IMG/VR virus record: IMGVR_UViG_3300045912_000261
Location: 1-64,000 of that record
DNA: 64,000 bases
Origin: a virus
Reading direction: 5' to 3' (one strand)
A program made the position numbers and the translations under genes. This document shows positions 3,897 to 44,517 of this stretch, piece after piece (positions within the stretch are counted from its first letter, which is position 1; every line of letters begins with the position of its first letter). Below the pieces are notes generated by a model. It was not told the DNA's origin. It saw only the letters and a program-made list of their open reading frames with translations, and made no database searches.

Positions 3897-6239
3897 TTGA
3901 TGGGTTCGACTTTGTCCGAGGAAGCCATCAGGGATCTCAGGGGAAGCGGCCTCAGAGATGAGCACATTGAGGCTATGCGTTGCCGCCCTGCTACGGTACA
4001 AGATCTTCCGTTCGCAGCCACAGGCTACGTCATCCCCTACTTCATTCCCACTGAGGAAGGGGAGTATGTTCGCCTCGAGGTTTCAGGTACTCCCTTCTCT
4101 CGGATCAAGATCCTCTCGCACCAGTCATCCGGGAACGGAATCCCCAAGTATTACCAGAGGGCTGCCACAGGTTCTCACGTCTACTTCCCTCCCCTCGTAG
4201 AGGCTGCCCGTTGGTGGGACACCAACGAGCCGCTCATCATCACTGAAGGGGAGAAGAAGGCGGCCTGTGCTACCGCACAAGGGTTTCTAACGTGTGCTGT
4301 AGGCGGAATCGACTCGTGGCGGTCTAAGAAGCTTATGGTGCCACCGGAGGCTGTCGTCGCAGGCGGAACGAAAGCCGTCCTGGTGGAACTTGATGACGAG
4401 GCGGAGCAGAAGATCGAGCTCCGTGCAGCAGACGAACTGACCTGGCTTCCCTTGGAGGGACGCCGGGTTTACGTATGCTTTGATTCCGATGGGCTGCAGA
4501 GTAAACGTAACCGAGTAGCCCGAGCTGCCTTTGACTTTGCCATCTGGCTCGAGACCCAAGGGGCCGACCCTAGACAGGTGGTCCTTCCTGCCGAGCCTGG
4601 AGAGAAAGTTGGGCTGGATGACTTCCTAGTCTCGGGGGGCAAGCTTGAACCCCTACTCAGCTCTGCCCGCTTCCCCACCAGACCCGGGCTCAAGATGTGG
4701 GCGCGCAAGCAGCTTGCCAACCCTAGGCGCACCCGCAACACAATGACCTCAGTGGCCCGAGGGATCCTAGCTGCCCTCGATGAACGAGGGACGCGCTTCC
4801 GGGACCCCTATGGCATGTACTACTACTTCGATAAGGCAACGGATAAGCTCCACCTGATGCCCATCGAAACAGGCCAGTCACTGCAGGTTGCAGCCCCAAG
4901 TTTTCACCAGCTATTGGTGCGTGAATACGGAGTGTCATCCGCGGACCGGGAGCTGGTACAGCGCCTGGTTGACGACTTCGAATCCCTGGAGCCTGTGCAG
5001 CAAGTAACGCGGGTACATAGGCAGTCGTACGCGGCTCCTGATGCGCTGTATTACCAGCTGTCCGACTCCCGTATGGCGAAGGTTACAGCTTCGGGCATCG
5101 AGGTACTACGTAACGGGACCGACAGGGTCCTGTTCCAAGTCGGGGCCGAGGAAGTAGAGCTGTACAACAAACAGCTGCCCCCAGGGTTTGGTTGGCTGTC
5201 CATGTTGAAGACTACGTCCCTTGAGCCCATTGGCACTCTGACGCTGGATGAAACCCACCTCCTGGTCGCTTGCCTGTTCTACCTCTCGCCGTGGCTCCGT
5301 CGCTGGAGAGGGCTCATGCTGCCTGCTGAGCTGGCTGTGTCTGAAGCAGGCTCGGGTAAAAGCTCGTTGTACCAGCTGCGTTCGGGGATCTTTACTGGGT
5401 CGGCACGTCTGCAGCATCAGCCCGAGGACATGAGATCTTGGTACTCTTCGATCGCGGACGCCCGCGGTCTGTGGGTAGCAGACAACATGGGCTCGAAGAT
5501 CGACGTCAGGATCAGCAACGAGATTGCCCGCCTGATTACGGACCCCGACCCTGCATTCGAACTGCGTGAGCTCTACACCACCTCCAAAGTACACCGCATG
5601 CCCGTAGACTGTGTCTTCGCCTTCACAGCCATCTACAACCCCTTCCACAGGCCGGACATCCTCCAGCGGTCGCTGCAGCTCCGCTTCCATGCCATCACCA
5701 AGAGAGACGGTGGCTGGATGTACAGGCAGATCGCAGATCAGGGCAGATCGATGTGGGTGACTCATCACCTGCAAACAATCTCTCGTTTCCTGGACAACGC
5801 AAAGGACATGGAGTGGGGAGTCAGTTCGAAGCATCGTCTCGTAGGCTTTGAGCAATCCCTACGCTGCATGGGTATAACGCTCGGTCGCAGGGCCGATATC
5901 GAACGGGTGATCCAAAAGTTGCCCGAGGCTGTTCAGGAGAGTATCACTGCTGACGAGCCTGTGATTGCAGCCCTACGTGCATTCGTCAAGGTTAAGCAGG
6001 GGCAGCGTAACAGACGAACGAACAAGATCTCCCTGGACGAGATCGTTGAGTGGGCACAGTACGCCACAGGGGAGAGGTACCAAGACCTGCGGGTACTCCG
6101 CAATCCCAGGCTGCTGGAGAAGTACATTCAGGCTCACGCTCACGATGTGTACAACACTACAGGGATCAGGGCCACGCCTGAAGAGTTCCGTGGGTACAGA
6201 TTGTTCGAGATCGACTTCAGCAAGGTGGCGGCCGTATGA
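3897..6239 (+). CDS. DNA primase-helicase (DUF3854-type Toprim primase plus P-loop helicase domain)
   Basis: LIITEGEKKA, VYVCFDSD, KVGLDDFL Toprim motifs; EAGSGKSS Walker A; WVADN Walker B-like. Confidence 0.8.
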   Translation: MMGSTLSEEAIRDLRGSGLRDEHIEAMRCRPATVQDLPFAATGYVIPYFIPTEEGEYVRLEVSGTPFSRIKILSHQSSGNGIPKYYQRAATGSHVYFPPLVEAARWWDTNEPLIITEGEKKAACATAQGFLTCAVGGIDSWRSKKLMVPPEAVVAGGTKAVLVELDDEAEQKIELRAADELTWLPLEGRRVYVCFDSDGLQSKRNRVARAAFDFAIWLETQGADPRQVVLPAEPGEKVGLDDFLVSGGKLEPLLSSARFPTRPGLKMWARKQLANPRRTRNTMTSVARGILAALDERGTRFRDPYGMYYYFDKATDKLHLMPIETGQSLQVAAPSFHQLLVREYGVSSADRELVQRLVDDFESLEPVQQVTRVHRQSYAAPDALYYQLSDSRMAKVTASGIEVLRNGTDRVLFQVGAEEVELYNKQLPPGFGWLSMLKTTSLEPIGTLTLDETHLLVACLFYLSPWLRRWRGLMLPAELAVSEAGSGKSSLYQLRSGIFTGSARLQHQPEDMRSWYSSIADARGLWVADNMGSKIDVRISNEIARLITDPDPAFELRELYTTSKVHRMPVDCVFAFTAIYNPFHRPDILQRSLQLRFHAITKRDGGWMYRQIADQGRSMWVTHHLQTISRFLDNAKDMEWGVSSKHRLVGFEQSLRCMGITLGRRADIERVIQKLPEAVQESITADEPVIAALRAFVKVKQGQRNRRTNKISLDEIVEWAQYATGERYQDLRVLRNPRLLEKYIQAHAHDVYNTTGIRATPEEFRGYRLFEIDFSKVAAV

Positions 6240-6373
6240 AACCCAGTAGACCAGCAACCAACCTCCTAGTTCTGGCCGACCCCTCTCCCGACCCCGAGTG
6301 GACTGTTCTCACAGTAGCCGTATCCGCCTCGGTCCTGCAGGAACTCCTCCAAGACCTTTGGGACTGGTTCTAG
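6236..6373 (+). CDS. DWF-tailed microprotein (45 aa)
   Basis: ATGA overlap with primase stop; MKPSRP...QDLWDWF*. Confidence 0.6.
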   Translation: MKPSRPATNLLVLADPSPDPEWTVLTVAVSASVLQELLQDLWDWF

Positions 6374-6374
6374 C

Positions 6375-6590
6375 ATGAACAGTTCTACGGCTACTACGGA
6401 CTCCGGGTGGATCTTGACGTTTCCTGCCGTAACCCTCAAGGGGGGAGAGACCCTCCTCCTTCAGTATACGTATACCTGGACCTGCTCAGCTGCATACTAT
6501 ACCTGGACCTGCTCAGCTACGCATACTCGGAGTGCACGGAGGGTTTCCCTAAGTGTCCCAGAAGCTCTCCGCGAAGGTAACTGGTTCTAG
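6375..6590 (+). CDS. NWF-tailed microprotein (71 aa)
   Basis: ATG 1 nt after previous stop; ends REGNWF*. Confidence 0.55.
   Translation: MNSSTATTDSGWILTFPAVTLKGGETLLLQYTYTWTCSAAYYTWTCSATHTRSARRVSLSVPEALREGNWF
6471..6518 (+). repeat. 21-bp direct repeat, period 27 (YTWTCSA twice)
   Basis: TATACCTGGACCTGCTCAGCT at 6471 and 6498. Confidence 0.85.
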
Positions 6591-6591
6591 T

Positions 6592-6780
6592 ATGTACTTG
6601 CACAGCAGCAGCACGGCATACTACATTTGGACTAAGCAGGGCTACGAGAAACTGGGCAGCGACCTCAATTGGGGTGTGGTAGTAATCCCGCACATTGCGC
6701 CTAGGCCAGCACAAACATCACGACGCAGGATCTCTTCTAGGGTTTGGTGGGTCCTGAAGATGAGCAAAGACTGGTTCTAA
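6592..6780 (+). CDS. DWF-tailed microprotein (62 aa)
   Basis: ATG 1 nt after previous stop; ends MSKDWF*. Confidence 0.55.
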   Translation: MYLHSSSTAYYIWTKQGYEKLGSDLNWGVVVIPHIAPRPAQTSRRRISSRVWWVLKMSKDWF

Positions 6781-6917
6781 TGGCTTCTGACACCCCTCCT
6801 TCAGAGCTTCCCGATATCTTCACCATGCCCTTTGAGGACTTCCTCAGGCTCTTTAAGGCGCTGGGAAGCTATGTCTACTGCACGATCGTGTTCGAGCCCC
6901 GCGACGACTGGTTCTAG
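6780..6917 (+). CDS. DWF-tailed microprotein (45 aa)
   Basis: TAATG overlap; MASDTPP...EPRDDWF*. Confidence 0.6.
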   Translation: MASDTPPSELPDIFTMPFEDFLRLFKALGSYVYCTIVFEPRDDWF

Positions 6918-6925
6918 GAGGAAAC

Positions 6926-7618
6926 ATGGAACGAGGTCTTGGACGTAAGGAGCCGACTGACTGGCGCCACGTCGAGAAGTACCGCTTCACACGTACGACA
7001 ACTTCGGTAGAGCGAACGATCCCCCTAGTCTGGTCCGCCAGGACCTTCTACGATCAGGGAACTGAGGGAGCCTGCGTTGGGTTCTCCTGTTCTTGGATGA
7101 TGACTCTGCTCAACCGCCGACGGTATGATGCCTTCTGGCTCTACCGCGAAGCTCAGAAGGTTGACGAGTGGCCTGGTGAGGACTACAGCGGTACATCACT
7201 GCGTGCTGGCCTGGACATTCTGCGAGAGGTGGGTCACCGCAGAGTAGCCTGGAAACGGACCTATCCGGCAGCTTTGGGCGAAGGAATCCACGAGAACCGA
7301 TGGGCGACTAGTGTGGATGAGATCCGCGGGGCGATTGCTGAGGGTACGCCTGTGGTGCTCGGGATCAACTGGTACTCGAGCTTTGATGTTCCCGCACGTC
7401 GGTGGCCCAGATGGTTCATTGGAGACAGACCCGATTGGGGTTGGGTTAGGGGAGGCCATGCTATTTGTTGTCGGGGTGCCTCTGACGCACTCCAGTCAGT
7501 GTTGCTCACAAACTCCTGGGGACGAGATTACCCCGCAGGAGTATGGTTGCCTTATGAGGGACTGGCACGCCTACTACGGGAAAATGGAGAGGCTGGGCTT
7601 GTCACTGACCGCCCGTAG
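6926..7618 (+). CDS. papain-like (C1) cysteine peptidase
   Basis: DQGTEGACVGFS (Cys), GGHAI (His), NSWG (Asn); RBS AGGAGG. Confidence 0.85.
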   Translation: MERGLGRKEPTDWRHVEKYRFTRTTTSVERTIPLVWSARTFYDQGTEGACVGFSCSWMMTLLNRRRYDAFWLYREAQKVDEWPGEDYSGTSLRAGLDILREVGHRRVAWKRTYPAALGEGIHENRWATSVDEIRGAIAEGTPVVLGINWYSSFDVPARRWPRWFIGDRPDWGWVRGGHAICCRGASDALQSVLLTNSWGRDYPAGVWLPYEGLARLLRENGEAGLVTDRP

Positions 7619-7673
7619 GCTGGCTGCCTTCCTCAACATTGCCTCACCCGAGTATAGGGATGACTGGTTCTAA
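7599..7673 (+). CDS. DWF-tailed micropeptide (24 aa)
   Basis: TTG start after GGAGAGG; MSLTARR...YRDDWF*. Confidence 0.45.
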   Translation: MSLTARRLAAFLNIASPEYRDDWF

Positions 7674-7786
7674 TGGTCAACTGTAAATTGGACCTTTTCG
7701 AGGCCCTACTCAAGCAGCTCTCCCGAGCCTCCGCGAACCCACGCACGAGAGCCATCATTCTGGTCTGCGAGGAAGACTGGTTCTAG
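7673..7786 (+). CDS. DWF-tailed microprotein (37 aa)
   Basis: TAATG overlap; MVNCKL...CEEDWF*. Confidence 0.55.
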   Translation: MVNCKLDLFEALLKQLSRASANPRTRAIILVCEEDWF

Positions 7787-7825: not shown

Positions 7826-7855
7826 TTGATTTCCCAAGTGGCTTTCTGCTATAAT
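7826..7855 (+). promoter_or_regulatory. sigma70-type promoter with extended -10
   Basis: TTGATT-18 nt-TATAAT, TG before -10. Confidence 0.8.
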
Positions 7856-8170: not shown

Positions 8171-8172
8171 CC

Positions 8173-8961
8173 TTGGGTGATGAGCCTCTGAAGAGATGTA
8201 GCCGTGGGGACCATTGGGTCCCTATTTCTGGTTTCAATGCCGACTCGAAGGCTAAGGATGGCCTGCAGGGTAGCTGCAGGGAATGCCAGAAGGCTTACCA
8301 GAAAGAGTACTACGTCAAGACGAAGGAGAAGCGTCGGAGGTACCATCAAACACGACGCCGAAAGCTCCGTCGCGCAGAGGTAATGGCTAAGTGGCGAGCT
8401 GAGCACCCAGAAGCTGCCCGTACGCACCGAGCCACGCAGAGAGCCAAAGAGCTGGGCATTGAGGGAAGCTACACAGAGGCTGAGTGGATCGAGCTACAGG
8501 AGTACTACAACTACCACTGTCTGAGCTGCCTCCAGCAGTTCCCAGGGGATCTAGAAGCCGATCACGTACGTCCTCTTCAACAGGGTGGAACGAACACTAT
8601 CGACAACATCCAGCCTCTGTGTACTCCCTGCAACCGGAAGAAGGGTACCCGGTACGTCGACTTCCGCCCCCGATGGGAAGCGAGCAAGCACGTGGAGCAC
8701 GGGAGCAAAACTGTTGTCATACTCGACTATAACAGGCAGGTTGAAGCCTCCCACAGGTGGATCTCCCCCGACTTCGGACGGAGCCTCTCCTTACGAATCC
8801 CTGCAGAGATACTCAAGGACCCCCATCCACGAATCCGTGTTACTATCGAGCCGGTGGACGATCCCGATGACTCGGGAGCAGAAGAGGGCCCTGGACTTGC
8901 TGGACCAGCCCCCTCCGGAGATGTCCCGGACGGAGCTGGAGAACCTGGACCTGCTACCTAG
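8173..8961 (+). CDS. HNH endonuclease
   Basis: N-terminal KRC...F..D...KDGLQGSCREC; CxxC...DHVRPL..GG.N.IDNIQPLCxxCNxxKG; TTG start assumed. Confidence 0.85.
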   Translation: MGDEPLKRCSRGDHWVPISGFNADSKAKDGLQGSCRECQKAYQKEYYVKTKEKRRRYHQTRRRKLRRAEVMAKWRAEHPEAARTHRATQRAKELGIEGSYTEAEWIELQEYYNYHCLSCLQQFPGDLEADHVRPLQQGGTNTIDNIQPLCTPCNRKKGTRYVDFRPRWEASKHVEHGSKTVVILDYNRQVEASHRWISPDFGRSLSLRIPAEILKDPHPRIRVTIEPVDDPDDSGAEEGPGLAGPAPSGDVPDGAGEPGPAT

Positions 8962-9343
8962 GCGTTTCTGGGCCTCTGACGGGTACAATAATGGCCTCTA
9001 CAACTTTTGGGAGCCTCTCTGTAAGCCTCCATACAAGTGGAGCCCGTACGCCTTCGCCCTCTGTGGGCAGCTCGCATACGAAACTTTCGCCACAAGAATT
9101 GGCTCAGGGCTCTACGCATTCACGGCGTACGAGCTGCTGGGCTGTATTAGGCAGGCAGCGAGCTGCGGCTTTGCTTGCTGCCGGGTGCCCCACCCGAACG
9201 ACACTCTAGCCTACCTCGTGGGTGTACACTACTTAGTGGAATGCAACTTGCTGACCGGAGTGACTCCAGCCTCCTGGAGGCGAGCGGACCACTCCCTAAG
9301 AGATGGCTGCCGGTATGTGTTCAGGATCGATGACTGGTTTTAA
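8867..9343 (+). CDS. DWF-tailed hypothetical protein (158 aa)
   Basis: MTREQKR...FRIDDWF*; start uncertain. Confidence 0.55.
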   Translation: MTREQKRALDLLDQPPPEMSRTELENLDLLPRRFWASDGYNNGLYNFWEPLCKPPYKWSPYAFALCGQLAYETFATRIGSGLYAFTAYELLGCIRQAASCGFACCRVPHPNDTLAYLVGVHYLVECNLLTGVTPASWRRADHSLRDGCRYVFRIDDWF

Positions 9344-9485
9344 GTACGCCCCTGAGTTCGTACTGGGTGGCTTCATGGGTATGCTTTGGTATACTTGCAA
9401 CCTTCCAGGCCTCCTCGTCCTAGGCGTCCTCCTGCTGCTCGTTGCGGTCCTCCTTATCTGTAGGGAGCTAGCTGGTGACCTCTAG
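9330..9485 (+). CDS. small membrane protein starting inside the DWF motif
   Basis: ATG ACT GGT TTT (MTGF) overlaps GAT GAC TGG TTT TAA; hydrophobic. Confidence 0.5.
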   Translation: MTGFKYAPEFVLGGFMGMLWYTCNLPGLLVLGVLLLLVAVLLICRELAGDL

Positions 9486-9714
9486 CACAGAACGCCTCGC
9501 CTCCATCATCCTCGCGGGTGGGGTGATCCTGCTTCTGGGACTTCTCCTGGAGTTCGTTCCAGACCCGTTCGTCCTCTACCCCCTGCTCGGAGCCTTTGCA
9601 GGCAGCCTCGCCTGGAGGGCAGTCGCCTCGGTGCACCGTGCAGGCCGTAAGGTAGGCTCCCTCAAGAAGATGCTCGTCTTCCAGCAGATCAGGGACTCCA
9701 ATGATTGGTTCTGA
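9475..9714 (+). CDS. DWF-tailed membrane protein (79 aa)
   Basis: two hydrophobic segments; ends DSNDWF*. Confidence 0.6.
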   Translation: MTSSTERLASIILAGGVILLLGLLLEFVPDPFVLYPLLGAFAGSLAWRAVASVHRAGRKVGSLKKMLVFQQIRDSNDWF

Positions 9715-9989
9715 TGGCTAGGTGTTGTCCCACGGGAGTGGGCTGCAACAACCCTTACGGACACCAGCCCTGCCTACTGGAGTGTGCGAAGGCCTGCCCC
9801 AATGAATCTCTTGCCATCCGCGTTCTCTATTGGTGGTGGCGGTGGAACACTCTGCCTTGGAGACGTCTAAGGGAGCGAGACAAGGCAAAGCTCATGTATC
9901 AGGACACCTTGGCAATGGCCCTACGCAGGCGGGACCTGATGTACTACGGCGTAGGACGCATCTACGAGGATGGCCGTGACTGGTTCTGA
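9714..9989 (+). CDS. DWF-tailed Cys-rich microprotein (91 aa)
   Basis: TGATG overlap; ends DGRDWF*. Confidence 0.55.
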   Translation: MARCCPTGVGCNNPYGHQPCLLECAKACPNESLAIRVLYWWWRWNTLPWRRLRERDKAKLMYQDTLAMALRRRDLMYYGVGRIYEDGRDWF

Positions 9990-11372: not shown

Positions 11373-11402
11373 TTGATTTCACCGTGTGCACTGCTGTATA
11401 AT
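11373..11402 (+). promoter_or_regulatory. sigma70-type promoter
   Basis: TTGATT-18 nt-TATAAT. Confidence 0.75.
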
Positions 11403-12988: not shown

Positions 12989-13603
12989 ATGCCTGCTCCA
13001 TTGCAAGGACTGCGTGGCGTGTTCCTCCCTGTGGTTGACAACATCTGTACCAAGGAGACCGTAGCCTTCGCGAGAGTAGACGCCGGTGATGCTGAAGCTG
13101 CAGCACGACATCTTTGGATCTGGCAGGGTGAAGGAAGCTACCCAGCTCGCCCTGATGGAGCCAAACTTCCTCATTGCGTGCTGGGAGTTTCCCCTTCCAC
13201 CCCAGTTGAGCCGCGCAACCGAAACTTCCTGGACTGCCGTAGGTTCAATCTGCGAACCAAGCCAGCTCGCAACAAGGTCGCGGACCGCATCCGCAGCAGA
13301 TTTCGAGGAGTCCTCAGAGACCCCCATCCGCCCGACAGCCTTCGTCCCTGGCTGGCTTACGGAAGAACACCAGAAGGAGGCCTTGCACGCCTGGGCTACT
13401 TCCGAAGAGAGGAAGAGGCAGCCACCCGAGCTAGGGAGTGGGAAAGAGCTTATCAGTCAATACACCTGGAGGACGACTGGCAGGGCGGAGGTTTCGGAAG
13501 ACACTTGGGTTCTCCCAAGTCATCCTCCAGGCACGTTAACGCTGGCCCCGGAAAGTTCATCGACCGGGAGGGTCCTGAACTGGAAGCTTGGGACTGGTTC
13601 TAG
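12989..13603 (+). CDS. degenerate HNH-AP2 protein with DWF tail
   Basis: FARVD..D...W, VEPRNRNFLDCRRFNLR (HNH DH dyad replaced by EP), SRFRGV...W.AY...LGYF..EEEAA (AP2); ends EAWDWF*. Confidence 0.65.
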   Translation: MPAPLQGLRGVFLPVVDNICTKETVAFARVDAGDAEAAARHLWIWQGEGSYPARPDGAKLPHCVLGVSPSTPVEPRNRNFLDCRRFNLRTKPARNKVADRIRSRFRGVLRDPHPPDSLRPWLAYGRTPEGGLARLGYFRREEEAATRAREWERAYQSIHLEDDWQGGGFGRHLGSPKSSSRHVNAGPGKFIDREGPELEAWDWF

Positions 13604-13689
13604 GAGACTATGGCTTCCAAAGCCCCCACCAAAGTGGAGGGTGGCACTGATAGTGGCCCAGCCTCTTTGCGACCTCAGACTCCTAGGAG

Positions 13690-13908
13690 ATGACTGGTTC
13701 TAGATACACCCCCGAGAAGTACTGCGTAGACATCGACTCCAGAACCAACGGTCACGGCGTCACGTACTCCATCTGGATCTACCCCTACGACCCTGAAGAT
13801 GCCACACCTCTACCCCTTCGCCCTAGTAGGCAGATCTGCACAAGGCATTTCCTCGCTCTTCACGTGGTCGAGGCAGTCGTCAGGGGACACAGTGGAGACT
13901 GGTTCTGA
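13690..13908 (+). CDS. MTGS...DWF microprotein (72 aa)
   Basis: ATG inside upstream DWF motif; ends HSGDWF*. Confidence 0.6.
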   Translation: MTGSRYTPEKYCVDIDSRTNGHGVTYSIWIYPYDPEDATPLPLRPSRQICTRHFLALHVVEAVVRGHSGDWF

Positions 13909-14086
13909 GCTTCCAAAGTGTCACGTTGAGCTTCTCGAAGGCCCAGGACACGTTTACAAGATATGGGAGACGAGACAACTAGCTTCAGGCAGAACCCGCT
14001 GGACCGAGCTCGCCGTCTTGCGACCGCCCTTCTTCTTGGATCCCTACAGAGTTTTCGAGATGGCAAACTCCTATGACTGGTTCTAA
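13892..14086 (+). CDS. METGS...DWF microprotein (64 aa)
   Basis: GTG start reading through upstream motif; ends NSYDWF*. Confidence 0.55.
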   Translation: METGSELPKCHVELLEGPGHVYKIWETRQLASGRTRWTELAVLRPPFFLDPYRVFEMANSYDWF

Positions 14087-14237
14087 CATCGTGGGCGTGA
14101 GCTACTCGGGGAGGACACCTTGTGGCGGATTCTCATACACAGTGTTCCGAGAGACAGGCAAGCTTACTCTTACCCTCAGGCACCGACCGCAATCTCATGT
14201 CGTAGCAATCGCCCTTAGCTCTGATGACTGGTTCTGA
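14073..14237 (+). CDS. MTGS...DWF microprotein (54 aa)
   Basis: ATG inside upstream motif; ends SSDDWF*. Confidence 0.6.
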   Translation: MTGSNIVGVSYSGRTPCGGFSYTVFRETGKLTLTLRHRPQSHVVAIALSSDDWF

Positions 14238-14391
14238 GGGCTTTCTAGGGGTAGACTCCCTTTTACTCCAGGGGCCGAAGGGTTTCACGTACGTTGCCTA
14301 CTACGCGACCCACAGCACTAAGTACGTCATTAGCAGGCCCCTGAGCTCCTGGGTCCTGGATCACCTCCACCGCTCCGATGACTGGTTCTGA
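14224..14391 (+). CDS. MTGS...DWF microprotein (55 aa)
   Basis: ATG inside upstream motif; ends RSDDWF*. Confidence 0.6.
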   Translation: MTGSEGFLGVDSLLLQGPKGFTYVAYYATHSTKYVISRPLSSWVLDHLHRSDDWF

Positions 14392-15424: not shown

Positions 15425-15498
15425 GGCAGTGTAGCCCAATTGGTAGAGGCGACGGATTCAAGATCCGGAGGTTGGAGGTTCGACTCCTCCCACTGCCA
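15425..15498 (+). tRNA. tRNA-Leu(CAA), short variable arm, no encoded CCA
   Basis: acceptor GGCAGTG/CACTGCC, D-arm GCC...TGGTAGAGGC, anticodon loop TTCAAGA, T-arm GGAGG-TTCGACT-CCTCC. Confidence 0.85.
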
Positions 15499-15690: not shown

Positions 15691-16221
15691 TTGCCGTGGC
15701 GAGCCACAACAACGGGGGAGCACACCGTAAGAACACGTCCCCTGGGCGCGCTATCCAAGGATTACTCGCGCTTGCCCTCCTCGCCGTGGCAGCTGCCATC
15801 CTCGCGTACGTGGGAGGAATTGTGGCAGCCTTCGCGGTCACGTTATTCGAAGCCGGCTGGTCGACTATCCGATAGTGACAGACGCTGGCTTCGCAGGACC
15901 CTTGTGGACCTAGTTACCCCACCTGAGCTGACCGGCATTGTCCATGTCCTCCAGGACCCTCTTGACTACGTTCTAACGAGTCTTCTCTTGGACGCATGTC
16001 AGGAGAGGGAGCTCAGATTCAAGCTCAAGTTTGCTACCAGCCCCGCAGGCTTCTACTATACGCCTCACCCTCGTGCAGTCATTACTCCCAGGGGGTGGCA
16101 CGATAGGGAACTACGGAAGCTGTTCCTGCTGATTCGGAGGGCCCAAACTCGTATACACACAAGGATCCTCCTGAAGGCCTTGTTCCCGCCGGTGACAGCC
16201 GGGAGGCATGACTGGTTTTAG
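15691..16221 (+). CDS. DWF-tailed hypothetical protein; true start probably downstream (a separate membrane ORF 15696-15875 overlaps the 5' part)
   Basis: ends AGRHDWF*. Confidence 0.5.
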   Translation: MPWRATTTGEHTVRTRPLGALSKDYSRLPSSPWQLPSSRTWEELWQPSRSRYSKPAGRLSDSDRRWLRRTLVDLVTPPELTGIVHVLQDPLDYVLTSLLLDACQERELRFKLKFATSPAGFYYTPHPRAVITPRGWHDRELRKLFLLIRRAQTRIHTRILLKALFPPVTAGRHDWF

Positions 16222-16359
16222 GTGGTGGAGTGCCGGAGAATGGGTTACTTCGGATCGACACCGAGAGGACCCGGGTTCGAATCCCGGCCGCTCCACTAGG
16301 GGCGGTAGCTCAGTGGTAGAGCGCTACGTACCCACTCGTTAACGCCTCCACCACCTAAA
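16217..16359 (+). ncRNA. YrlA-type Y RNA with circularly permuted tRNA-like domain
   Basis: 14-bp terminal stem TTTAGGTGGTGGAG/CTCCACCACCTAAA; GTGCCGG...GGGTTACTTC...GTTAACGC motif; T-arm CCGGG-TTCGAAT-CCCGG, then acceptor stem closed by a short loop, then D-arm GCTC-AGTGGTA-GAGC; near Ro60 gene. Confidence 0.8.
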
Positions 16360-16978: not shown

Positions 16979-17008
16979 TTGATTTACCATAGCGCCTTCT
17001 GCTATAAT
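16979..17008 (+). promoter_or_regulatory. sigma70-type promoter of the Y RNA-Ro60 unit
   Basis: TTGATT-18 nt-TATAAT with extended TG. Confidence 0.8.
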
Positions 17009-22190: not shown

Positions 22191-22220
22191 TTGATTCCTC
22201 CGTGTTCTCTGTGATATAAT
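22191..22220 (+). promoter_or_regulatory. sigma70-type promoter
   Basis: TTGATT-18 nt-TATAAT with extended TG. Confidence 0.8.
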
Positions 22221-26352: not shown

Positions 26353-26402
26353 AACTAGGTGCCCGAGTCGACAGTTCTATGAAGCTGGGTGCCCGAGTTG
26401 AC
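26348..26402 (+). repeat. GGTGCC(C)G dispersed repeat, 2 units
   Basis: GATAGAACTAGGTGCCCGAGTCGAC, AAGCTGGGTGCCCGAGTTGAC. Confidence 0.8.
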
Positions 26403-26433
26403 AGACCGTTTCTTGAAGAAAGTATGACGCCCC

Positions 26434-26463
26434 TTGATTTCCCATTGTGTCATGCTATAAAAT
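26434..26463 (+). promoter_or_regulatory. sigma70-type promoter
   Basis: TTGATT-18 nt-TAAAAT. Confidence 0.75.
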
Positions 26464-26505
26464 TGTAACATCAATTGAAAACTGTGTCCAGAAAGGACCA
26501 GCCTA

Positions 26506-27150: not shown

Positions 27151-27151
27151 C

Positions 27152-36931: not shown

Positions 36932-37691
36932 GGGCCAGTTTGCCCCTGTAGGGAGCCTTACGCACTACAGGTTCCTTGAGGAACAAGGTGTCTTAGGGGA
37001 CTACCACCTCCTGCTAGCCCACAAGGTGCTGGAGGACCCTGATGGCTGGATCGATCTCTACAGACGCATCAGGGAACAGGGAAGAGAGCCCTTCGTGATC
37101 ATGGACAACTCCTTGATCGAGCTGGGCCGTCCCCTTCAGGCACCCGCACTGGCTGAAGCCTCCCGGATCGTAGATGCCTCGTGCCTCGTGCTTGCTGACG
37201 TGCTTTCTAACCGCCGAGCTACCGTCGAGCTCTCGGTGGCCATGCACTACGAGCTGCGGAAGATGAAGGAGGTCCCTCCCTTCCTTGCGGTGGTCCAGGG
37301 AGCCTCGTACGAGGATGCGCTACTTTGCGCAGAGGAACTAGCCTCCTTGGAAGGTGTGCGCTACCTCTCGATACCCAGAGTCGTAGCGGACACCATGGGG
37401 ACTCGGAAGCACCTGGTCAAAGAGGTCTACCGTAGGCATCAGCTCCCGATTCACCTCCTAGGCTTCTCTGAAGACATGGCAGATGACATCATGTGCACTA
37501 GTCTACCGGGGGTCATGGGGATCGACTCAGCTGTCCCCCTCCGGATGGGGCTCGCTGGAGTAGCCTGGGGCCCCCATCGGAAGACACCACCCCGACCGAA
37601 GAACTTCCTCGACAGCAAGGATGTTAATGTCCTCATGGTCGAAAACACAGTGGAAGTACGTAAGGCCATCGGACCCCAGGAAGCTACCTAA
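36921..37691 (+). CDS. TGT-fold protein, candidate DpdA-like DNA 7-deazaguanine transglycosylase
   Basis: VIMDNS, LAVVQG, PIHLLG, GIDS motifs match the TGT barrel layout; next to que/folE genes. Confidence 0.65.
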   Translation: MCPRGQFAPVGSLTHYRFLEEQGVLGDYHLLLAHKVLEDPDGWIDLYRRIREQGREPFVIMDNSLIELGRPLQAPALAEASRIVDASCLVLADVLSNRRATVELSVAMHYELRKMKEVPPFLAVVQGASYEDALLCAEELASLEGVRYLSIPRVVADTMGTRKHLVKEVYRRHQLPIHLLGFSEDMADDIMCTSLPGVMGIDSAVPLRMGLAGVAWGPHRKTPPRPKNFLDSKDVNVLMVENTVEVRKAIGPQEAT

Positions 37692-37833
37692 GCACGACCC
37701 CGAGAAAGCTGTCAATCGACAAGCTGCCATATTTCTGGCGTCGTCAGTCCCAGCAAAACGGAGGTTGAGGGTCCATATCTACACCAAAGGGGCGCACCCC
37801 AGACTCCGGAGCGTTCTCGAGGACTGGTTCTAG
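37621..37833 (+). CDS. DWF-tailed microprotein, start uncertain
   Basis: ends SVLEDWF*. Confidence 0.5.
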   Translation: MLMSSWSKTQWKYVRPSDPRKLPKHDPEKAVNRQAAIFLASSVPAKRRLRVHIYTKGAHPRLRSVLEDWF

Positions 37834-38000
37834 TGCGCTGCGAACTAGAAAGAGCGGCGGCGGAGCATGTTCGCTTCCTTCTAGGGATGAGCTCTGCTGA
37901 CAGGCGGGAAGCCTTCGGACGCCTCCAACACCTAGAGTACGCAGCGCGGCTCCGCTCTGAGTACGCCCTTCTCTGGTTCGAGCTTACGGACTGGTTCTAG
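37833..38000 (+). CDS. DWF-tailed microprotein (55 aa)
   Basis: TAGTG overlap; ends ELTDWF*. Confidence 0.6.
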   Translation: MRCELERAAAEHVRFLLGMSSADRREAFGRLQHLEYAARLRSEYALLWFELTDWF

Positions 38001-38131
38001 TGGTAGGCGAGCCTTTGCAGTGGCTTATGAAGTATGTCCTGACCAGAGAGGTCTCGCTGCCTTCGGCCTCGTGGCTTCTTAGCCCCCGTAAGAAGCGCCA
38101 GCTGCTCGGGTACCTCAATGACTGGTTCTAG
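38000..38131 (+). CDS. DWF-tailed microprotein (43 aa)
   Basis: TAGTG overlap; ends YLNDWF*. Confidence 0.65.
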   Translation: MVGEPLQWLMKYVLTREVSLPSASWLLSPRKKRQLLGYLNDWF

Positions 38132-38262
38132 TGTATCTGAACTTGGTACAGTGGCTGCTGCAGAGAGTTCTCGGGAGGGAGATTAGCTTGCACTCAGCCT
38201 TCTACCTCCTTAGCGCTGTCGAGTCAGCTGACCTTCGATCCAGTCTCGAGGACTGGTTTTGA
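38131..38262 (+). CDS. DWF-tailed microprotein (43 aa), paralogue of previous
   Basis: TAGTG overlap; shared QWL...VL.RE.SL.SA..LLS; ends SLEDWF*. Confidence 0.65.
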   Translation: MYLNLVQWLLQRVLGREISLHSAFYLLSAVESADLRSSLEDWF

Positions 38263-38417
38263 TACAGGTAGAAAGTCCAGCCCAGAGCTGGATGAGAGTG
38301 CTTTTAAGTCCTGAGTACTACTCTCTGTGGTGGAGGATGCACAAGTACGAAGCCTTCAAGAGGGGCTGCGAACCTTACGGATGGGCAGTCGTCTGCGAGA
38401 TGCATGACTGGTTCTAG
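38259..38417 (+). CDS. DWF-tailed microprotein (52 aa)
   Basis: TTGA overlap; ends EMHDWF*. Confidence 0.6.
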   Translation: MIQVESPAQSWMRVLLSPEYYSLWWRMHKYEAFKRGCEPYGWAVVCEMHDWF

Positions 38418-38595
38418 CTTGTTGGCCCTAACAGAGCCTGAATCAACTCAGGAGTGGGTATTCCTACTCTTGGGTACGCAGTACCCCTCGTGGTGGCGCG
38501 TGAATCGCTTCTACAGTTTCGCTGGCCTCGCAGTACTAGGGTCCCCCGACGGGCTGGCGGCCACGGTCGTGAGGGAGATCCAGGACTGGTTCTGA
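38404..38595 (+). CDS. MTGS...DWF microprotein (63 aa)
   Basis: ATG inside motif (or TTG 38419); ends EIQDWF*. Confidence 0.6.
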   Translation: MTGSSLLALTEPESTQEWVFLLLGTQYPSWWRVNRFYSFAGLAVLGSPDGLAATVVREIQDWF

Positions 38596-38756
38596 TGCCG
38601 GATCCCGATCCAGTACAGTGTTGGGTGCGCCTTCTCCTGATGACCGATATCCACGCCGATTGGCGAAAGGCTCAACACCACAACTTCAAAGCTCGCGCGG
38701 AGCTAGGAGGGTGGCACGAGATCGCCATCGTGGTAGCTCTCGCGGACTGGTTCTAG
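38595..38756 (+). CDS. DWF-tailed microprotein (53 aa)
   Basis: TGATG overlap; ends ALADWF*. Confidence 0.6.
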   Translation: MPDPDPVQCWVRLLLMTDIHADWRKAQHHNFKARAELGGWHEIAIVVALADWF

Positions 38757-38932
38757 TGCCTATAGGCTCTCGAGCAGGCTATCGCCGCAGTCTGGAGTGG
38801 CACACCTCGTATCGAGCCAGCAGGATTCTCCGAGAAAAATCCGTCCGAAAGCATGAACTCGAGCTGGTGGAGAAGGTTGCGAACCCGGACTACCGCAGGG
38901 CGGTAAGAGAACATCTGGCTGACTGGTTTTAG
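38756..38932 (+). CDS. DWF-tailed microprotein (58 aa)
   Basis: TAGTG overlap; ends HLADWF*; stop overlaps polymerase start. Confidence 0.6.
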   Translation: MPIGSRAGYRRSLEWHTSYRASRILREKSVRKHELELVEKVANPDYRRAVREHLADWF

Positions 38933-41475
38933 TGGCTACTCAAAGTCCTTCCGTGGCAGGGGGCCAATGCGCCAACTGCCCTTTCACGAGCCAGGCCGTA
39001 GTACGGCCCGATCTTCGTCGTGCTCCTCTGCTGATAGTCGGAGAGGCTCCTGGCGCGCAAGAGGTGCGCACGGGAGTTCCCTTTGTAGGTCCCTCAGGCC
39101 AGCTGCTCTGGCAGACGTTCAAGCGTCTTGGCATCGAGCGCGGCCAGGTCGCTGTAACGAATGCACTTCTTTGCTCGGTTCCTCCCTCCATGAGCAAGTC
39201 GGGAGGAGCCCTCCGTCAAGCTTGCCTAGCTTGCCGTAGCCGCCTCCTGGCAGACGTCGAGCTCGTGGACCCCAAGGTTATTCTTGCCTTGGGCAATACG
39301 GCTATGCAGTCCCTGCTGGCCAAGTTCTCGCTCAAGATCACGCAAGAGCGGGGCAAGGCAATTGAGTTCGACGGACGATGGATCATCCCCGCACTACATC
39401 CTGCCGCTGTACTTCGCAACCCTGGTGACTTCAAGCGACTTGCTGCCGACCTTTCCTACGCGGTCAGCCTTTCCAACGGAGGCCGCCCCAAGGATCCGGG
39501 TGAGACACGTTACCAAGTTGTTCGGACGGAAGAGGATCTGATCAAGGCCTGCAGGGTCCTCAAGAAGCACCGCACTCTAGCAGCAGACATCGAGACCTCG
39601 GACGTCAACCCCCGCAAGCACTGGATTCAGTACTTGGGCATCTGCTGGGAGAAGAACAAGGTAGCCATCTTCCCTCCCCGAGTACGGGTAGGACATGGTG
39701 CCCGTAATGACAGGTCGGTAAGCTCCGGTGCCGAGTCGACGGTAAGCTCCGGTGCAGGCGACGACGGGGTGCCTGTGGCCGAGTTGTACAGGAGTACTTG
39801 GACCCATCCAGACTTCAAGGCTCTCTTCGAGGACCCAGCGATCACTTGGGTGTGGCATAACGGCAAGTTCGACACCAGCTTCCTGCAGCAGGTAGGCCTG
39901 CCCGCCCGCACGGATGAGGACACGATGCTGCTCCATTACCTTTTGGACGAGGTGCGGGGGACGCACGACCTCAAGCAGCTGGCATCGGATCTCCTGGGGG
40001 CAGAAGACTACGACGCCATCGTCAAGAAGTATGCGGGCAAGGGCGAGAACGGTTGGGCAAAGATTCCGCCGCACATCCTTGTCCCCTACCTCGCTAGGGA
40101 CGCTGACTACACCTTCCAGATCTTCCCCATCCTTCGGGAGAGGGTCCGGAAGATCCCTGATCTGGAAGAGCTGTACACGACCCTGATCATTCCTGCCAGC
40201 CATTTTCTGCAGAGGGTCGAGAGGGCCGGGATGTGGGTCTCCTTCGAGCATCTGGAGAAGGTGGCTGCGGCTCTGGCCCAGGAGAAGGATGAAGTCGAGA
40301 CCCGAATCCAGGAGATTGCGGAGCAGTACTGGGACCCCGATGAGTACGCCAAGGCCACGGACTCCAAGTCCATTCCGCTAGAGTTCAACCCCGCATCGCC
40401 CCGGCAGGTAAGCTGGCTCATCTACAGCCGCCTCCGACTCCGCGTCCCCGGGAGGGCTGGGATCAGAGACACCAGAGAGGAAACCCTCCGGGAGCTTCCG
40501 CCGCACCCCCTGGTGACGAACCTGCTCAAGCTGCGGAAGATCAACAAGCAGCTTCAGACGTACGTTGAGGGCATCCTACGAGAGGTGGAGGCGGATGGGA
40601 GAGTTCACTCTACCTATCTCATTCACGGAACGTCTACCGGACGGCTCAGTTCTCGTAACCCTAACGCTCAAAATATCCCACGGGACCCACTTATCCGGGA
40701 TATCTTTCAAGCTCCTCCCGGCAAAATCCTGGTTGAGGCCGATTTTGATCAGGCAGAGCTTCGAATGCTCGCCCACCTATCGCGCGATGAAGAGCTGCTC
40801 CGCATCTACCGCGAAGGCCGCAAGCTCCATGATGAGGTTGCTGCAGACCTCTACGGCCCCAACTACACCGAAGAGCAACGGATGCGAGCCAAGGCAGTGA
40901 ACTTCGGGATCGTCTACGGACGGACGGAGTTCTCTCTGATGCACGAGTTCAAGATTGGCTTGCCGGAAGCCCAGCGGATGGTGCACGACTGGTTTGCAAG
41001 GTTCCCCCAAGCCAAGAGGTACATTGATGCCTGCCGGAACGCTCCGTTGCAGGGTAAACAGCTTGTGAGCCCCTTTGGTCGTCGTAGACGCTTTCCATTC
41101 GTGCCCGAAGCGTCCCGCAAAGAGATCCAGAACGAAAGCGCCAACTTTGCCATCCAGTCAGGAGCCAGCGATCTCACGCTGCTGACAGCCATGACGGCTG
41201 AACCCGAGCTGGACAGGATTGACGCCAAGATTGTGAACCTCGTTCACGACTCCATCCTCGTTGAGTGTCCTGAGAACCAGGCGATCACCGAGAAGGTGCT
41301 CCAGGTCTTGCAGGAGGCATCTGCGCGGGTGGTCAAGCATCGCCTCAAGGGGATTCTCGAGTTCCCAATGGACGCGAAGGTTGGTCGGGGGTGGGGGACC
41401 GCCATGAAAGGAGATGGTTGGTGGGAGTACAAGGCCAAAATGGGGGATCTCGAGCGCGCTCTCGGCCCCCAGTAG
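38932..41475 (+). CDS. polA: family A DNA polymerase with N-terminal uracil-DNA-glycosylase-like domain and 3'-5' exonuclease
   Basis: IVGEAPG..E..G.PFVG.SG and HPAAVLR (family-4 UDG); DIET, HNGKFD, Y...D (exo); TGRLSS, ADFDQAELR, AKAVNFGIVYG, VHDS. Confidence 0.93.
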   Translation: MATQSPSVAGGQCANCPFTSQAVVRPDLRRAPLLIVGEAPGAQEVRTGVPFVGPSGQLLWQTFKRLGIERGQVAVTNALLCSVPPSMSKSGGALRQACLACRSRLLADVELVDPKVILALGNTAMQSLLAKFSLKITQERGKAIEFDGRWIIPALHPAAVLRNPGDFKRLAADLSYAVSLSNGGRPKDPGETRYQVVRTEEDLIKACRVLKKHRTLAADIETSDVNPRKHWIQYLGICWEKNKVAIFPPRVRVGHGARNDRSVSSGAESTVSSGAGDDGVPVAELYRSTWTHPDFKALFEDPAITWVWHNGKFDTSFLQQVGLPARTDEDTMLLHYLLDEVRGTHDLKQLASDLLGAEDYDAIVKKYAGKGENGWAKIPPHILVPYLARDADYTFQIFPILRERVRKIPDLEELYTTLIIPASHFLQRVERAGMWVSFEHLEKVAAALAQEKDEVETRIQEIAEQYWDPDEYAKATDSKSIPLEFNPASPRQVSWLIYSRLRLRVPGRAGIRDTREETLRELPPHPLVTNLLKLRKINKQLQTYVEGILREVEADGRVHSTYLIHGTSTGRLSSRNPNAQNIPRDPLIRDIFQAPPGKILVEADFDQAELRMLAHLSRDEELLRIYREGRKLHDEVAADLYGPNYTEEQRMRAKAVNFGIVYGRTEFSLMHEFKIGLPEAQRMVHDWFARFPQAKRYIDACRNAPLQGKQLVSPFGRRRRFPFVPEASRKEIQNESANFAIQSGASDLTLLTAMTAEPELDRIDAKIVNLVHDSILVECPENQAITEKVLQVLQEASARVVKHRLKGILEFPMDAKVGRGWGTAMKGDGWWEYKAKMGDLERALGPQ
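39687..39758 (+). repeat. GGTGCC(C)G dispersed repeat, 3 units in frame within the polymerase
   Basis: GGTAGGACATGGTGCCCGTAATGAC, GGTAAGCTCCGGTGCCGAGTCGAC, GGTAAGCTCCGGTGCAGG. Confidence 0.75.
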
Positions 41476-42552: not shown

Positions 42553-42903
42553 ATGATCGAAGCCCTCTCCCTCGAGCCCGCTAAGAACTGTCTCAGTGGC
42601 ATCTTCCCCCTCGACTACGAGGATGACATTGCCCTCATGAGGGCAGTGCGAGACCTCCTTTTCAGCGAGCAGTACGAGGCAGGAAACCCCGAATACATCA
42701 AGCCCAGGGGGGAGGGAGTAGTAGAGAGGATCAACTTCCTCTTCCGGGGCTTTGACGGGGACACTCTGCGGGCGTTCAACTTCACTCTCAGCCACAGAAG
42801 ACCTCATGTCGGCAGCTACGACTCTGGAACGCACAACCTCGCTGCCCGCTCGATGGGCTTCACGGTCCATCACTACCTAACCGAGTGGCTCGACTGGTTC
42901 TAA
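42553..42903 (+). CDS. DWF-tailed hypothetical protein (116 aa)
   Basis: ends EWLDWF*. Confidence 0.55.
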   Translation: MIEALSLEPAKNCLSGIFPLDYEDDIALMRAVRDLLFSEQYEAGNPEYIKPRGEGVVERINFLFRGFDGDTLRAFNFTLSHRRPHVGSYDSGTHNLAARSMGFTVHHYLTEWLDWF

Positions 42904-43020
42904 CACCAAGTTTGCGCACGATAGGAAGGAGGTGAACTACTGGCCAACACCTGAGTCGCTACCGAACCCTCAGCGGTAGGGCTCCGTGCTGGACAAGGTA
43001 AACGAACAAGGAGACATGTC

Positions 43021-43680
43021 TTGCGACGTCTCAAGCTGGCTATTGCTGCGTGCCTCGTAGCAGTAGCTACGACGGCGGTAGCCATGCCGATGACGGCAAC
43101 AGGACACCATGTTAAGAAGTCCGTCCCCAAGACGACGGTGTCCTTGTACCAAGGCTACAGCATTCTGCACGCTAAGGCTAAGGTACTAAAGGGAGTCTCT
43201 GCTGGCCGTAACGTAGCAGTACACGGCCACGCCAAGGATGGCAAGAAGAGTCACGAGCTGGTGCGTAGGGAGTTCATCCGCCTTTGGCGGGAGCTCCATC
43301 CGGCAGCTGAGAGGTCCCACAGGCGGCGGCAGGAAAAAGCCGAGATCAACCGCCTGCTGAGGAACCCGACGCCGACCAACAATAGGTCGCTCGCCCGGTA
43401 CCTGATGCTGAAGTGGGGCTTCTCGGAAGCCGACTTCGCCTGTGTTGACAGGGTGGTAATGGGTGAGTCGTCTTGGGTTCACACTGTGTGGAACCGGCAG
43501 GGTTCAGGAGCCTACGGGATCCCGCAAGCTCTTCCCGGCTACAAGATGGCTTCGGCCGGAAGCGACTGGGCCACCAACCCCGCGACGCAGATCAGGTGGA
43601 TGGTTCTTCACTACATGGTGCCTCGTTACGGGTCGCCATGCGGTGCTTGGGCGTTTAAGTCCTCCAACGGATGGTACTAG
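43021..43680 (+). CDS. secreted lytic transglycosylase (actinobacterial Rpf/SLT-like)
   Basis: signal peptide; ESSW...N..SGAYGIPQALP..KM...G.DW.TNP.TQI.W...Y...RYGSPC.AW...WY. Confidence 0.85.
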   Translation: MRRLKLAIAACLVAVATTAVAMPMTATGHHVKKSVPKTTVSLYQGYSILHAKAKVLKGVSAGRNVAVHGHAKDGKKSHELVRREFIRLWRELHPAAERSHRRRQEKAEINRLLRNPTPTNNRSLARYLMLKWGFSEADFACVDRVVMGESSWVHTVWNRQGSGAYGIPQALPGYKMASAGSDWATNPATQIRWMVLHYMVPRYGSPCGAWAFKSSNGWY

Positions 43681-44012
43681 CAATGAGGATCGTCGCGCTA
43701 GTGCTGTTGACAGCCTCTCTGGTGGCTGCCACCGTTGCCCTAACACTGCTGATGAGCCAACCAGGAGTCTCGAAGACGCAGATCGAAGCTGTCCGTTTGG
43801 CGGACGACAGCGTCACTGAGCTCCAGGCCTGTGTTAGGACTGCCAGGGAGGCAACTGACACTGCAGAGACCGCCGTTAAGGTGGCGGAAAGATGGGAGGT
43901 GAGGGCGCGCAGGGCTGAGGCAGCTGCCGGAGGCTTTGTCGTCGTCCCGAACAACTAGAAGAGCACAGGCCTCCTCTGGAGGGAGGCCCCTTTCACAGGG
44001 GAGTCGAAACCG

Positions 44013-44429
44013 GTGGGAAAGAGGGTAACTGGGATCTGCCACAACTGTGGCGACCTCGCAAGTGGGCCGCGATCGTTCTACTGCGACGAATGCAGGCCGA
44101 TAGTCCGCAGGGCCCAGAGGATGGGCCAACCCAGTGCAAGGAGGCGTAGGAAGCGGCCGGACCATGTCTGCGTCTCCTGCCGCGAGAGACTTGCCAGGTC
44201 CAGTAGGGCTCTTTACTGTGAGCCTTGCTACATCAAGGTCAAACTCGAGTCCAAGAAGGCTTTTTACCTTGAGAGGCAGAAGCGCACCCGTGAGAACGCC
44301 CATACGGTCCTCAACTACGTTATCAACGAACTTATCCGCCTTCGAGAAGAGGGTGACTATGGTTCACCGCAGCTCACGCGCTTGGCCAAGATCCTTGAGC
44401 AGATCCGCATCCGCCCAGAAGGTGCCTGA
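44013..44429 (+). CDS. zinc-finger hypothetical protein
   Basis: four CxxC pairs. Confidence 0.5.
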   Translation: MGKRVTGICHNCGDLASGPRSFYCDECRPIVRRAQRMGQPSARRRRKRPDHVCVSCRERLARSSRALYCEPCYIKVKLESKKAFYLERQKRTRENAHTVLNYVINELIRLREEGDYGSPQLTRLAKILEQIRIRPEGA

Positions 44430-44517
44430 CCCGACTGCCGTTCTAGCTGCCTTCGCAGCCACTATGAAGAAGCTGAACGTACAAGTTCACATCATCACCA
44501 GTAGGGACTGGTTCTGA
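44422..44517 (+). CDS. DWF-tailed micropeptide (31 aa)
   Basis: GTG 44422; ends TSRDWF*; TGATG overlap with dNMP kinase. Confidence 0.5.
   Translation: MPDPTAVLAAFAATMKKLNVQVHIITSRDWF

Follow-up and report, generated by a model that had tools for sequence, protein, structure and literature searches.

Short C-terminal recognition tags as such are known. The ssrA tag and other C-terminal degrons are read by ClpXP and related AAA+ proteases, the chemoreceptor C-terminal pentapeptide NWETF tethers CheR and CheB, and the C-terminal tails of T4 gp43, gp33, and gp55 are clamp-binding. Targeting peptides of another kind are the capsid-targeting sequence of the T4 internal proteins, which is N-terminal and cleaved, and the encapsulin cargo-loading peptides, which are longer and rich in Gly and Leu. 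T7 gp4 has an acidic C-terminal tail ending in Phe. A tail of this kind is also present in T7 gp2.5, where it binds the family A DNA polymerase of T7 at basic patches (PMC12339929). The C-terminal tip of bacterial SSB (a binding protein for single-stranded DNA), D-D-D-I-P-F-COOH, docks onto many genome-maintenance proteins (PMC10164576), and sliding-clamp motifs take the form QL[SD]LF in bacteria and QxxΦxxFF in the PIP box (PMC9690074, PMC12867686). Here we describe a C-terminal Asp/Asn-Trp-Phe tail ([DN]WF) shared by at least 26 predicted proteins encoded in the first 64 kb (hereafter the window) of the 112,533-bp, 59% GC genome of a hot-spring phage, IMG/VR record IMGVR_UViG_3300045912_000261. 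As far as sequence analysis can tell, [DN]-W-F-COOH is probably a portable protein-level C-terminal recognition tag for common cytoplasmic handling.

The observation is confirmed and lies far beyond chance. A search for the word RAY-TGG-TTY directly followed by a stop codon (TRR) recovered 26 copies on the plus strand of the window, 25 of them GAY-TGG-TTY and one AAC-TGG-TTC, and none on the minus strand, whereas 100 dinucleotide-preserving shuffles of the window averaged 0.17 words and never exceeded two. An earlier note on this DNA, made from the letters alone, had listed the same 26 plus-strand coordinates, all of which proved exact; its codon tallies (GAC 24/GAT 1, TTC 22/TTT 4, TAG 13/TGA 8/TAA 5) were recounted and are correct, and there is indeed no copy among the minus-strand structural genes. 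The note had called the pattern genome-wide, which is true insofar as the whole genome contains 28 copies, the extra two being NWF-stop words at 106648 and 111910, but overstated in that the copies are confined to plus-strand clusters, at 6.2-16.2 kb, 37.6-38.9 kb, 42.9 kb, and 44.5 kb, with the two NWF words in the early region at 106-112 kb. The minus strand of the whole genome, including its structural half, contains no such word, and neither does intergenic DNA. All 28 words terminate open frames, which are 40-262 codons long. GACTGGTTY without a stop directly after it is absent from the genome, TGGTTY stands before a stop in 28 of 60 cases on the plus strand versus 1 of 33 on the minus strand, and among 32,926 predicted residues [DN]WF is C-terminal 28 times and internal three times. 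The tailed open reading frames (ORFs) make up about 15% of the roughly 190 called by a crude gene finder. The residue preceding the tripeptide, which the note had described as often acidic, is so in nine copies but not in the remaining 19.

Judged by codon structure and arrangement, at least 26 (28 genome-wide) mostly tiny accessory genes of early and middle plus-strand operons are real and end in [DN]WF. Over up to 32 codons upstream of the tail, GC content at codon positions 1, 2, and 3 of the DWF frame is 0.58, 0.47, and 0.70, close to the 0.62, 0.47, and 0.71 of 79 confident reference genes, and the other two frames misfit the reference. Eight of the ORFs, of 43-68 aa, are tiled gaplessly between 37627 and 38932, joined by TAGTG, TGATG, a TTG taken from TTT-TGA, or a 14-nt overlap, and the last stop of this array overlaps the GTG start of a UDG-exo-PolA polymerase gene. 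Three tagged proteins are present as called genes in public protein collections; one tagged ORF, ending at the word at 13692, has no convincing start. Four hot-spring or microbial-mat DNA runs, filed under two samples, give contigs identical to the window. The DNA may itself come from one of the two samples, which leaves at most one independent sample as confirmation of the sequence, and the identical contigs contain no polymorphism. No RNA run is listed among the sequencing runs holding this sequence.

By homology, the tag appears portable across unrelated accessory bodies and lies outside the core replication enzymes and structural proteins. An all-against-all BLAST comparison of the bodies links only the ORF at 38000 with that at 38131, and those at 38259, 38404, and 38595 with one another; a faint third paralogue group is found at 13690-14391. 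Otherwise the bodies have no detectable common homology and their predicted secondary structures differ, and hidden Markov models of the paralogue groups found no further tagged ORF among all 2,632 open frames. The 204-aa carrier (12989-13603), which a protein atlas groups with HNH_3/AP2 endonucleases, has 88 homologues with AP2-type C-terminal regions, none of which ends in DWF; among its matches the DWF end occurs only in the query's own cluster. The NWF protein at genome positions 106324-106659 consists of a cREC_REC domain (PF20274, E = 1e-25) followed by an 11-residue tail. The tailless homologues of these two carriers support the earlier proposal that the tag sits on unrelated proteins. 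Two further carriers are membrane proteins with the tail behind a basic stretch, which by the positive-inside rule would place it in the cytoplasm. No tagged ORF within the window matched Pfam or PHROGs, the 116-aa carrier matched nothing in the protein atlas, and neither it nor the 140/158-aa carrier has a homologue among 5.8 billion proteins. The untagged proteins include a DUF3854 primase-like protein, ligase, Ro60, a SNF2 helicase, a PD-(D/E)XK nuclease, AAA_24, DUF669 (SSB-like), a sigma factor, the products of the 7-deazaguanine genes, PolA, a deoxynucleoside monophosphate (dNMP) kinase, and the product of every minus-strand structural gene.

The same carriers bear on the possibility that the tail is a family signature or a structural cap, that is, that the bodies are diverged paralogues or that a helix-plus-aromatic staple stabilizes small thermophilic folds with no shared receptor. 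This we consider unlikely. There are two clear paralogue groups, and hydrophobic residues at −8 and −4 (counting back from the terminal Phe) could form one face of a terminal helix together with the Trp and Phe. AlphaFold2 (AF2) models the polA-proximal family as a three-helix bundle (mean predicted local distance difference test score, pLDDT, 87) with DWF after helix 3 and the tail confidently placed; fold searches with this model gave no significant match, and the family at 13.7-14.4 kb is modeled at low confidence (pLDDT 58) as beta-beta-beta-alpha. Opposed to a cap are the failure of the family models to recover any other tagged ORF and the presence among the carriers of membrane proteins and of the cREC_REC and AP2/HNH-like proteins with their tailless homologues. 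Core packing does not usually conserve an invariant, exactly C-terminal tripeptide over different folds, and the small genes of the 95-112 kb early region are almost all tailless.

The codon and frame statistics indicate selection on the peptide rather than on the DNA word, and it is well supported that the constraint falls mainly on the peptide Φ-x-x-x-[Φ/S]-x-[DN]-W-F-COOH. In the tails, the TTC:TTT ratio of 22:4 matches the 81% TTC of the reference genes, and the 13:8:5 usage of TAG, TGA, and TAA matches the reference 35:21:23. The GAC:GAT ratio of 24:1 is an apparent skew relative to 72% GAC overall (p = 0.003), but GAC usage rises to 87% when T is the next base (24 of 30 before TGG), which makes 24 of 25 unremarkable. 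The skew thus disappears, and comparing this ratio with genome-wide Asp usage, as the earlier note had suggested, reveals no nucleotide constraint once context is allowed for. Within paralogue pairs, 18-22 of about 50 aligned residues are identical, about half of these with different codons, and DWF is invariant; the conservation between paralogues is at the protein level, with synonymous sites saturated. Information content is limited to the 12-nt word. The only signal upstream of it is that residues −8 and −4 have T as their second codon base, which means hydrophobic residues there, and the first and third positions are free; the tail usually lies behind a short helix that carries these hydrophobic residues. 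Relative to the ORF upstream, all 28 words share a single frame, even though neither of the word's other two frames contains a stop; this fixed frame, together with the restriction to the plus strand, favors the peptide-level interpretation.

The word is also used as a gene junction, a second layer at the nucleotide level that the earlier reading lacked, although its peptide-level part stands. A NAT codon precedes the Asp in 10 of 28 copies, compared with 2.8% of all codons (p = 3e-9), and 10 of the 12 D, N, H, or Y codons in this position have the rare T ending (p = 7e-6). With NAT before it the word reads ATG-AYT-GGT-TCT, which places an ATG 2 nt upstream in those 10 copies. This embedded ATG opens the next real ORF, beginning MTGS or MTGF, at 9330, 13690, 14073, 14224, 14378, and 38404; at 7660 and 9701 the frame that it opens is just 8 and 6 codons long, respectively. 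The latter two frames (7660-7686 and 9701-9721) end just past the real TAATG or TGATG start of the next gene, and they are possibly mini-ORFs for coupling or relics of the 14-nt junction. The other next starts overlap the stop, lie 1 nt after it, or stand behind a normal Shine-Dalgarno (SD) site whose first bases belong to the stop codon (TAGGAGG). No ORF adjoins three of the tagged genes downstream: a promoter-like site comes after the word at 7775, tRNA-Ser after that at 16210, and a gap exceeding 100 nt after that at 42892. Coupling is therefore not the only purpose of the word.

These junctions raise the question of whether DWF could be the by-product of an RNA signal for termination-reinitiation, in which GACUGGUUC right before the stop holds or repositions the ribosome for a nearby restart. 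A fixed relation to the stop would fix the frame too, a start lies within −14 to +20 nt of the word in 23 of the 26 window copies, and the embedded ATG, the TAATG, TGATG, and TAGTG overlaps, and the TTG start made by TTT-TGA are all in keeping with such a signal. We nevertheless think it quite improbable. Three tagged genes are without a downstream neighbor, the position of the start relative to the word ranges over 34 nt, the variable sites are exactly the synonymous ones and vary at genome-usage frequencies, and the conservation upstream tracks amino acid properties. The word is missing from many other overlapping junctions in the genome and is not SD-like, and real SD sites are found after the stop where a spacer exists. 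A termination or re-initiation role, one of those the earlier note had entertained, is thus weakened by the genes that have nothing to reinitiate and by the freedom of the synonymous sites.

It is just as improbable that the word is a 12-14-nt recombination or cassette-exchange site that spreads with accessory cassettes and encodes a functionless peptide: the word does lie at gene boundaries and mark accessory rather than core genes, about six copies both end one gene and start the next (ATGACTGGTTCT = MTGS), and HNH endonuclease genes are nearby, but the conservation of the word is tied to the frame, which is one and the same in all 28 copies, first and second codon positions do not vary whereas third positions and the stop have drifted to genome usage, the distance to the next start is not fixed (−14 to +20, or no start at all), there is no conserved flanking DNA and no inverted repeat, and the minus strand and intergenic DNA are empty of copies. 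Each rival covers some of the features, and none covers all three of frame fixation, synonymous drift, and spread over unrelated bodies. We also rejected pairing of the word with the 3′ end of 16S rRNA (no good complementarity), frameshifting or bypass at UUC-stop (slippery only where the stop follows UUU, as it does four times), reassignment of stop codons (each of the three is in normal use), and recognition by the periplasmic PDZ proteases, readers of Y-x-F tails (the carriers have no signal peptides, and the tails of the membrane carriers lie on the basic, presumably cytoplasmic side).

A protein-level recognition tag has several partial precedents. With the SSB tip the tail shares one or more acidic residues before a C-terminal Phe, a free carboxylate, one tail per pocket type, and a setting in cytoplasmic DNA metabolism. 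It differs in having many carriers, where the SSB tip is one carrier read by many partners, and in its sequence: W, never P, occupies position −1, where SSB has a conserved Pro, position −3 is acidic in 9 of 28 copies, and there is no long acidic run, no disordered linker, and no SSB domain or OB-fold SSB among the carriers. The T7 proteins, too, are phage proteins that end in acidic residues followed by an aromatic one, and their replication module likewise has a family A polymerase. Terminal Phe and Asp or Asn at −2 are found in all 28 tails, PolA is present, and eight tagged genes are tiled onto polA. In T7, by contrast, the carriers number two, their acidic tails are long, and their roles in the replisome are defined, and here there are at least 26 mostly orphan microproteins, membrane proteins included, without a long acidic run.

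With the clamp motifs, too, a single pocket takes many clients, and their [SD]-Φ-F-COOH resembles D-W-F-COOH; the polA-proximal tails, which read [LIM]-x-D-W-F, resemble the second half of the PIP box. Unlike these motifs, no copy has Gln at −4 or −7, and no clamp gene is found among the annotated proteins. The residues at −4 are L (7), S (7), R (3), I (3), E (2), G (2), M (2), A (1), and W (1), and −3 is variable, so that the likeness to QL[SD]LF is confined to the last three positions. From the PIP box the tails have the two end aromatics and, in 12 of 28 copies (8 of 8 polA-proximal), an aliphatic −4, with no enrichment of Gln at −7. An ssrA-type signal is similar in relying on a few exactly C-terminal residues, in depending on the free carboxylate, and in acting on any fold, a likeness that suits the heterogeneity of the carriers and the absence of the tag from core and late proteins; the DWF sequence is unlike LAA or RRKKAI, though, and the tail is encoded in each gene rather than added by transfer-messenger RNA. 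The T4 capsid-targeting sequence and the encapsulin peptides likewise use a short shared peptide to address diverse small proteins to one destination in a phage or HK97-fold system, but DWF is neither N-terminal and cleaved nor long and Gly/Leu-rich, and the membrane proteins among the carriers argue against packaging. NWETF, which is purely a tether, is a free C-terminal aromatic motif with Trp and terminal Phe; there W is at −3, the carriers form one family (methyl-accepting chemotaxis proteins), and the biology is unrelated.

If [DN]WF is a recognition tag, its free carboxylate and Trp-Phe pair would insert in one pocket of a single shared receptor, and many unrelated carriers would be handled alike through one candidate reader. 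Two forms of such handling are possible and about equally likely, each of them tentative. In the first, the tail would be a turnover signal akin to a C-degron, with a host AAA+ protease or a papain-like cysteine peptidase encoded by the phage itself (6926-7618) as its reader. Turnover suits the variety of the carriers, their absence from the core and late classes, the three-residue length, as in ssrA, and the location of the peptidase gene in tag cluster A. In the second, the tail would recruit its carriers to a replication hub, for example PolA or the pockets of a host clamp or of SSB partners. Recruitment suits the location in the replication module, the array tiled onto polA, and the precedents of T7 gp2.5, the SSB C terminus, and the clamp-binding tails. 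In addition, the DNA word doubles as a junction, with an ATG 2 nt upstream of it or a stop-overlapping start beginning the next gene. A more far-reaching proposal, plausible although we would not yet favor it, is an address-label system, in which the tag would direct at least 26 unrelated proteins to a single receptor pocket, timing their removal or concentrating them; candidates for the receptor are the phage's papain-like peptidase, a host protease of the AAA+ class, and a component of the replisome.

The earlier note had proposed a free-carboxyl tag that sends many accessory proteins to one hub; the frame, codon, and homologue tests support the tag on many unrelated accessory proteins, and the hub and the roles listed for it (SSB-tip mimic, degron, packaging) are putative. 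Several points weigh against a recognition tag. Its receptor is hypothetical and its carriers are predicted from sequence, a motif of three residues is short for specific docking, and part of the count consists of two paralogue groups, the five polA-proximal genes and the four at 13.7-14.4 kb. The nucleotide-level constraint seen in the NAT codons coexists with the peptide one. In the AF2 model of the three-helix family the confidence of the tail is about 90, so that the tail may pack on its own bundle, which favors a structural role in that family. Finally, no tagged relative was found in the collections searched. A phage collection searched in near and distant mode held no DNA match to the window. 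Identity to relatives does not exceed 46% for PolA in IMG/VR and metagenomes, or 49% for the peptidase in IMG/VR. At 88 loci with PolA or peptidase relatives, the scan for enriched C-terminal tripeptides that the earlier note had suggested found none over-represented, using the same script that finds DWF 25 times in the window. Scans with two and three words across the genomes of IMG/VR and GTDB gave nothing but CRISPR arrays, tandem repeats, and chance matches. In the literature we found no paper on a shared C-terminal tag of small phage proteins, or on DWF; it is the scale of its use, rather than the use of a short C-terminal tag, that has no published counterpart that we could find.

All the tagged ORFs listed below are on the plus strand, as are the peptidase and polymerase genes. 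Six near-identical sigma-70-like promoter candidates (TTGATT-N18-TAtAAT, beginning TTGATTyCC, with an 18-nt spacer) on this strand, at 3426-3455, 7826-7855, 11373-11402, 16979-17008, 22191-22220, and 26434-26463, probably delimit the early and middle operons holding tag clusters A-D, which are located in the first three promoter units. The first tagged ORF (6236-6373, 45 aa, ending LWDWF) has an ATG that overlaps the stop of the DUF3854 primase-like gene. It is followed by ORFs of 71 aa with the NWF end (6375-6590), 62 aa (6592-6780, SKDWF), and 45 aa (6780-6917, RDDWF), the last with a TAATG start and with an SD site and the untagged peptidase gene after it. This C1 peptidase, a candidate reader, belongs to a family of more than 1,300 members, with Q44, C50, N196, and W198 as invariant residues, and has a match in 3OIS; a complex prediction of the peptidase (66-row alignment) with the 45-aa carrier at 6780-6917 scored 0.00 and 0.04, which counts neither way. 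An ORF of 29-39 aa (7554-7673, RDDWF; start uncertain) and one of 37 aa (7673-7786, EEDWF) come next, and the latter ends its operon, with the promoter-like site at 7826 after it. Farther along are an ORF of 140 aa, or 158 aa if it starts at ATG 8867 (8921-9343, IDDWF), a membrane protein of 79 aa with two hydrophobic segments, the basic stretch, and then the tail (9475-9714, SNDWF), and an ORF of 83-91 aa (9714-9989, GRDWF), in which the ATG of the ligase gene (9970) lies 8 nt before the word.

The 204-aa AP2/HNH-like protein (12989-13603) ends in AWDWF and is followed by the weakest gene model, that of the word at 13692 (13641-13703), whose frame is open for 207 codons but which has 20 aa when read from GTG 13641. 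The same DNA at 12989-13703 carries two frames open for more than 200 codons, both ending in DWF; homology favors the 12989 frame, the codon score partly favors the other at 13070-13400, and the pair could reflect an additional overlapping gene, a relic left by a frameshift, or coincidence. The next group consists of ORFs of 72 aa (13690-13908, SGDWF), with an MTGS start within the preceding word, 64 aa (13892-14086, SYDWF), 54 aa (14073-14237, MTGS to SDDWF), and 55 aa (14224-14391, MTGS to SDDWF), the last being the one modeled as beta-beta-beta-alpha. An ORF of about 105 aa with an uncertain start (15904-16221, RHDWF) has a stop that abuts tRNA-Ser(CGA) at 16222-16296, and tRNA-Leu(CAA) lies nearby at 15425-15498.

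The array upstream of polA begins with ORFs of 68 aa (37627-37833, LEDWF) and 55 aa (37833-38000, LTDWF; TAGTG junction), followed by two paralogues of 43 aa (38000-38131, LNDWF, and 38131-38262, LEDWF). The remaining four are of 52 aa (38259-38417, MHDWF), with the TTG start from the TTT-TGA of the preceding tail, 63 aa (38404-38595, MTGS to IQDWF), which gave the three-helix model, 53 aa (38595-38756, LADWF; TGATG junction), and 58 aa (38756-38932, LADWF), whose stop overlaps the GTG start of polA. The untagged polymerase (38932-41475) is a candidate hub. Two tagged ORFs lie beyond it, one of 116 aa (42553-42903, WLDWF) and one of at least 31 aa with an uncertain start (44422-44517, SRDWF), which forms a TGATG junction with the dNMP kinase gene.

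Other features of the genome deserve mention. A Ro60/TROVE plus vWA gene lies within the replication module (17420-18982), and an Rfam search of the window found no Y-RNA-like family at the gathering threshold. A full 7-deazaguanine set occupies 25624-37691 (QueC, PTPS/QueD, GTP cyclohydrolase I, a phosphoribosyltransferase, and unannotated ORFs before polA), and an HNH gene stands beside short ORFs at 29933-30728. Outside the window, the products of 95066-95323 (ending GGDDQEF) and 100032-100196 (ending GTDDAF) have acidic ends with Phe that are like the SSB tip and are not DWF. The small plus-strand genes at 94800-112500, from which the tag is almost absent, have a GC content of 0.82 at third codon positions versus 0.71 in the rest of the genome, which suggests a different temporal class or origin.

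Most small early phage proteins are orphans, and a shared tag provides one experimental handle for 26 of them together. If the tail is a degron or a recruitment signal, the virus would be timing or localizing a whole accessory set by means of a three-residue suffix, and the suffix would be a minimal portable tag for thermophilic hosts. The search for over-represented C-terminal peptides is a productive route to organization in viral dark matter.

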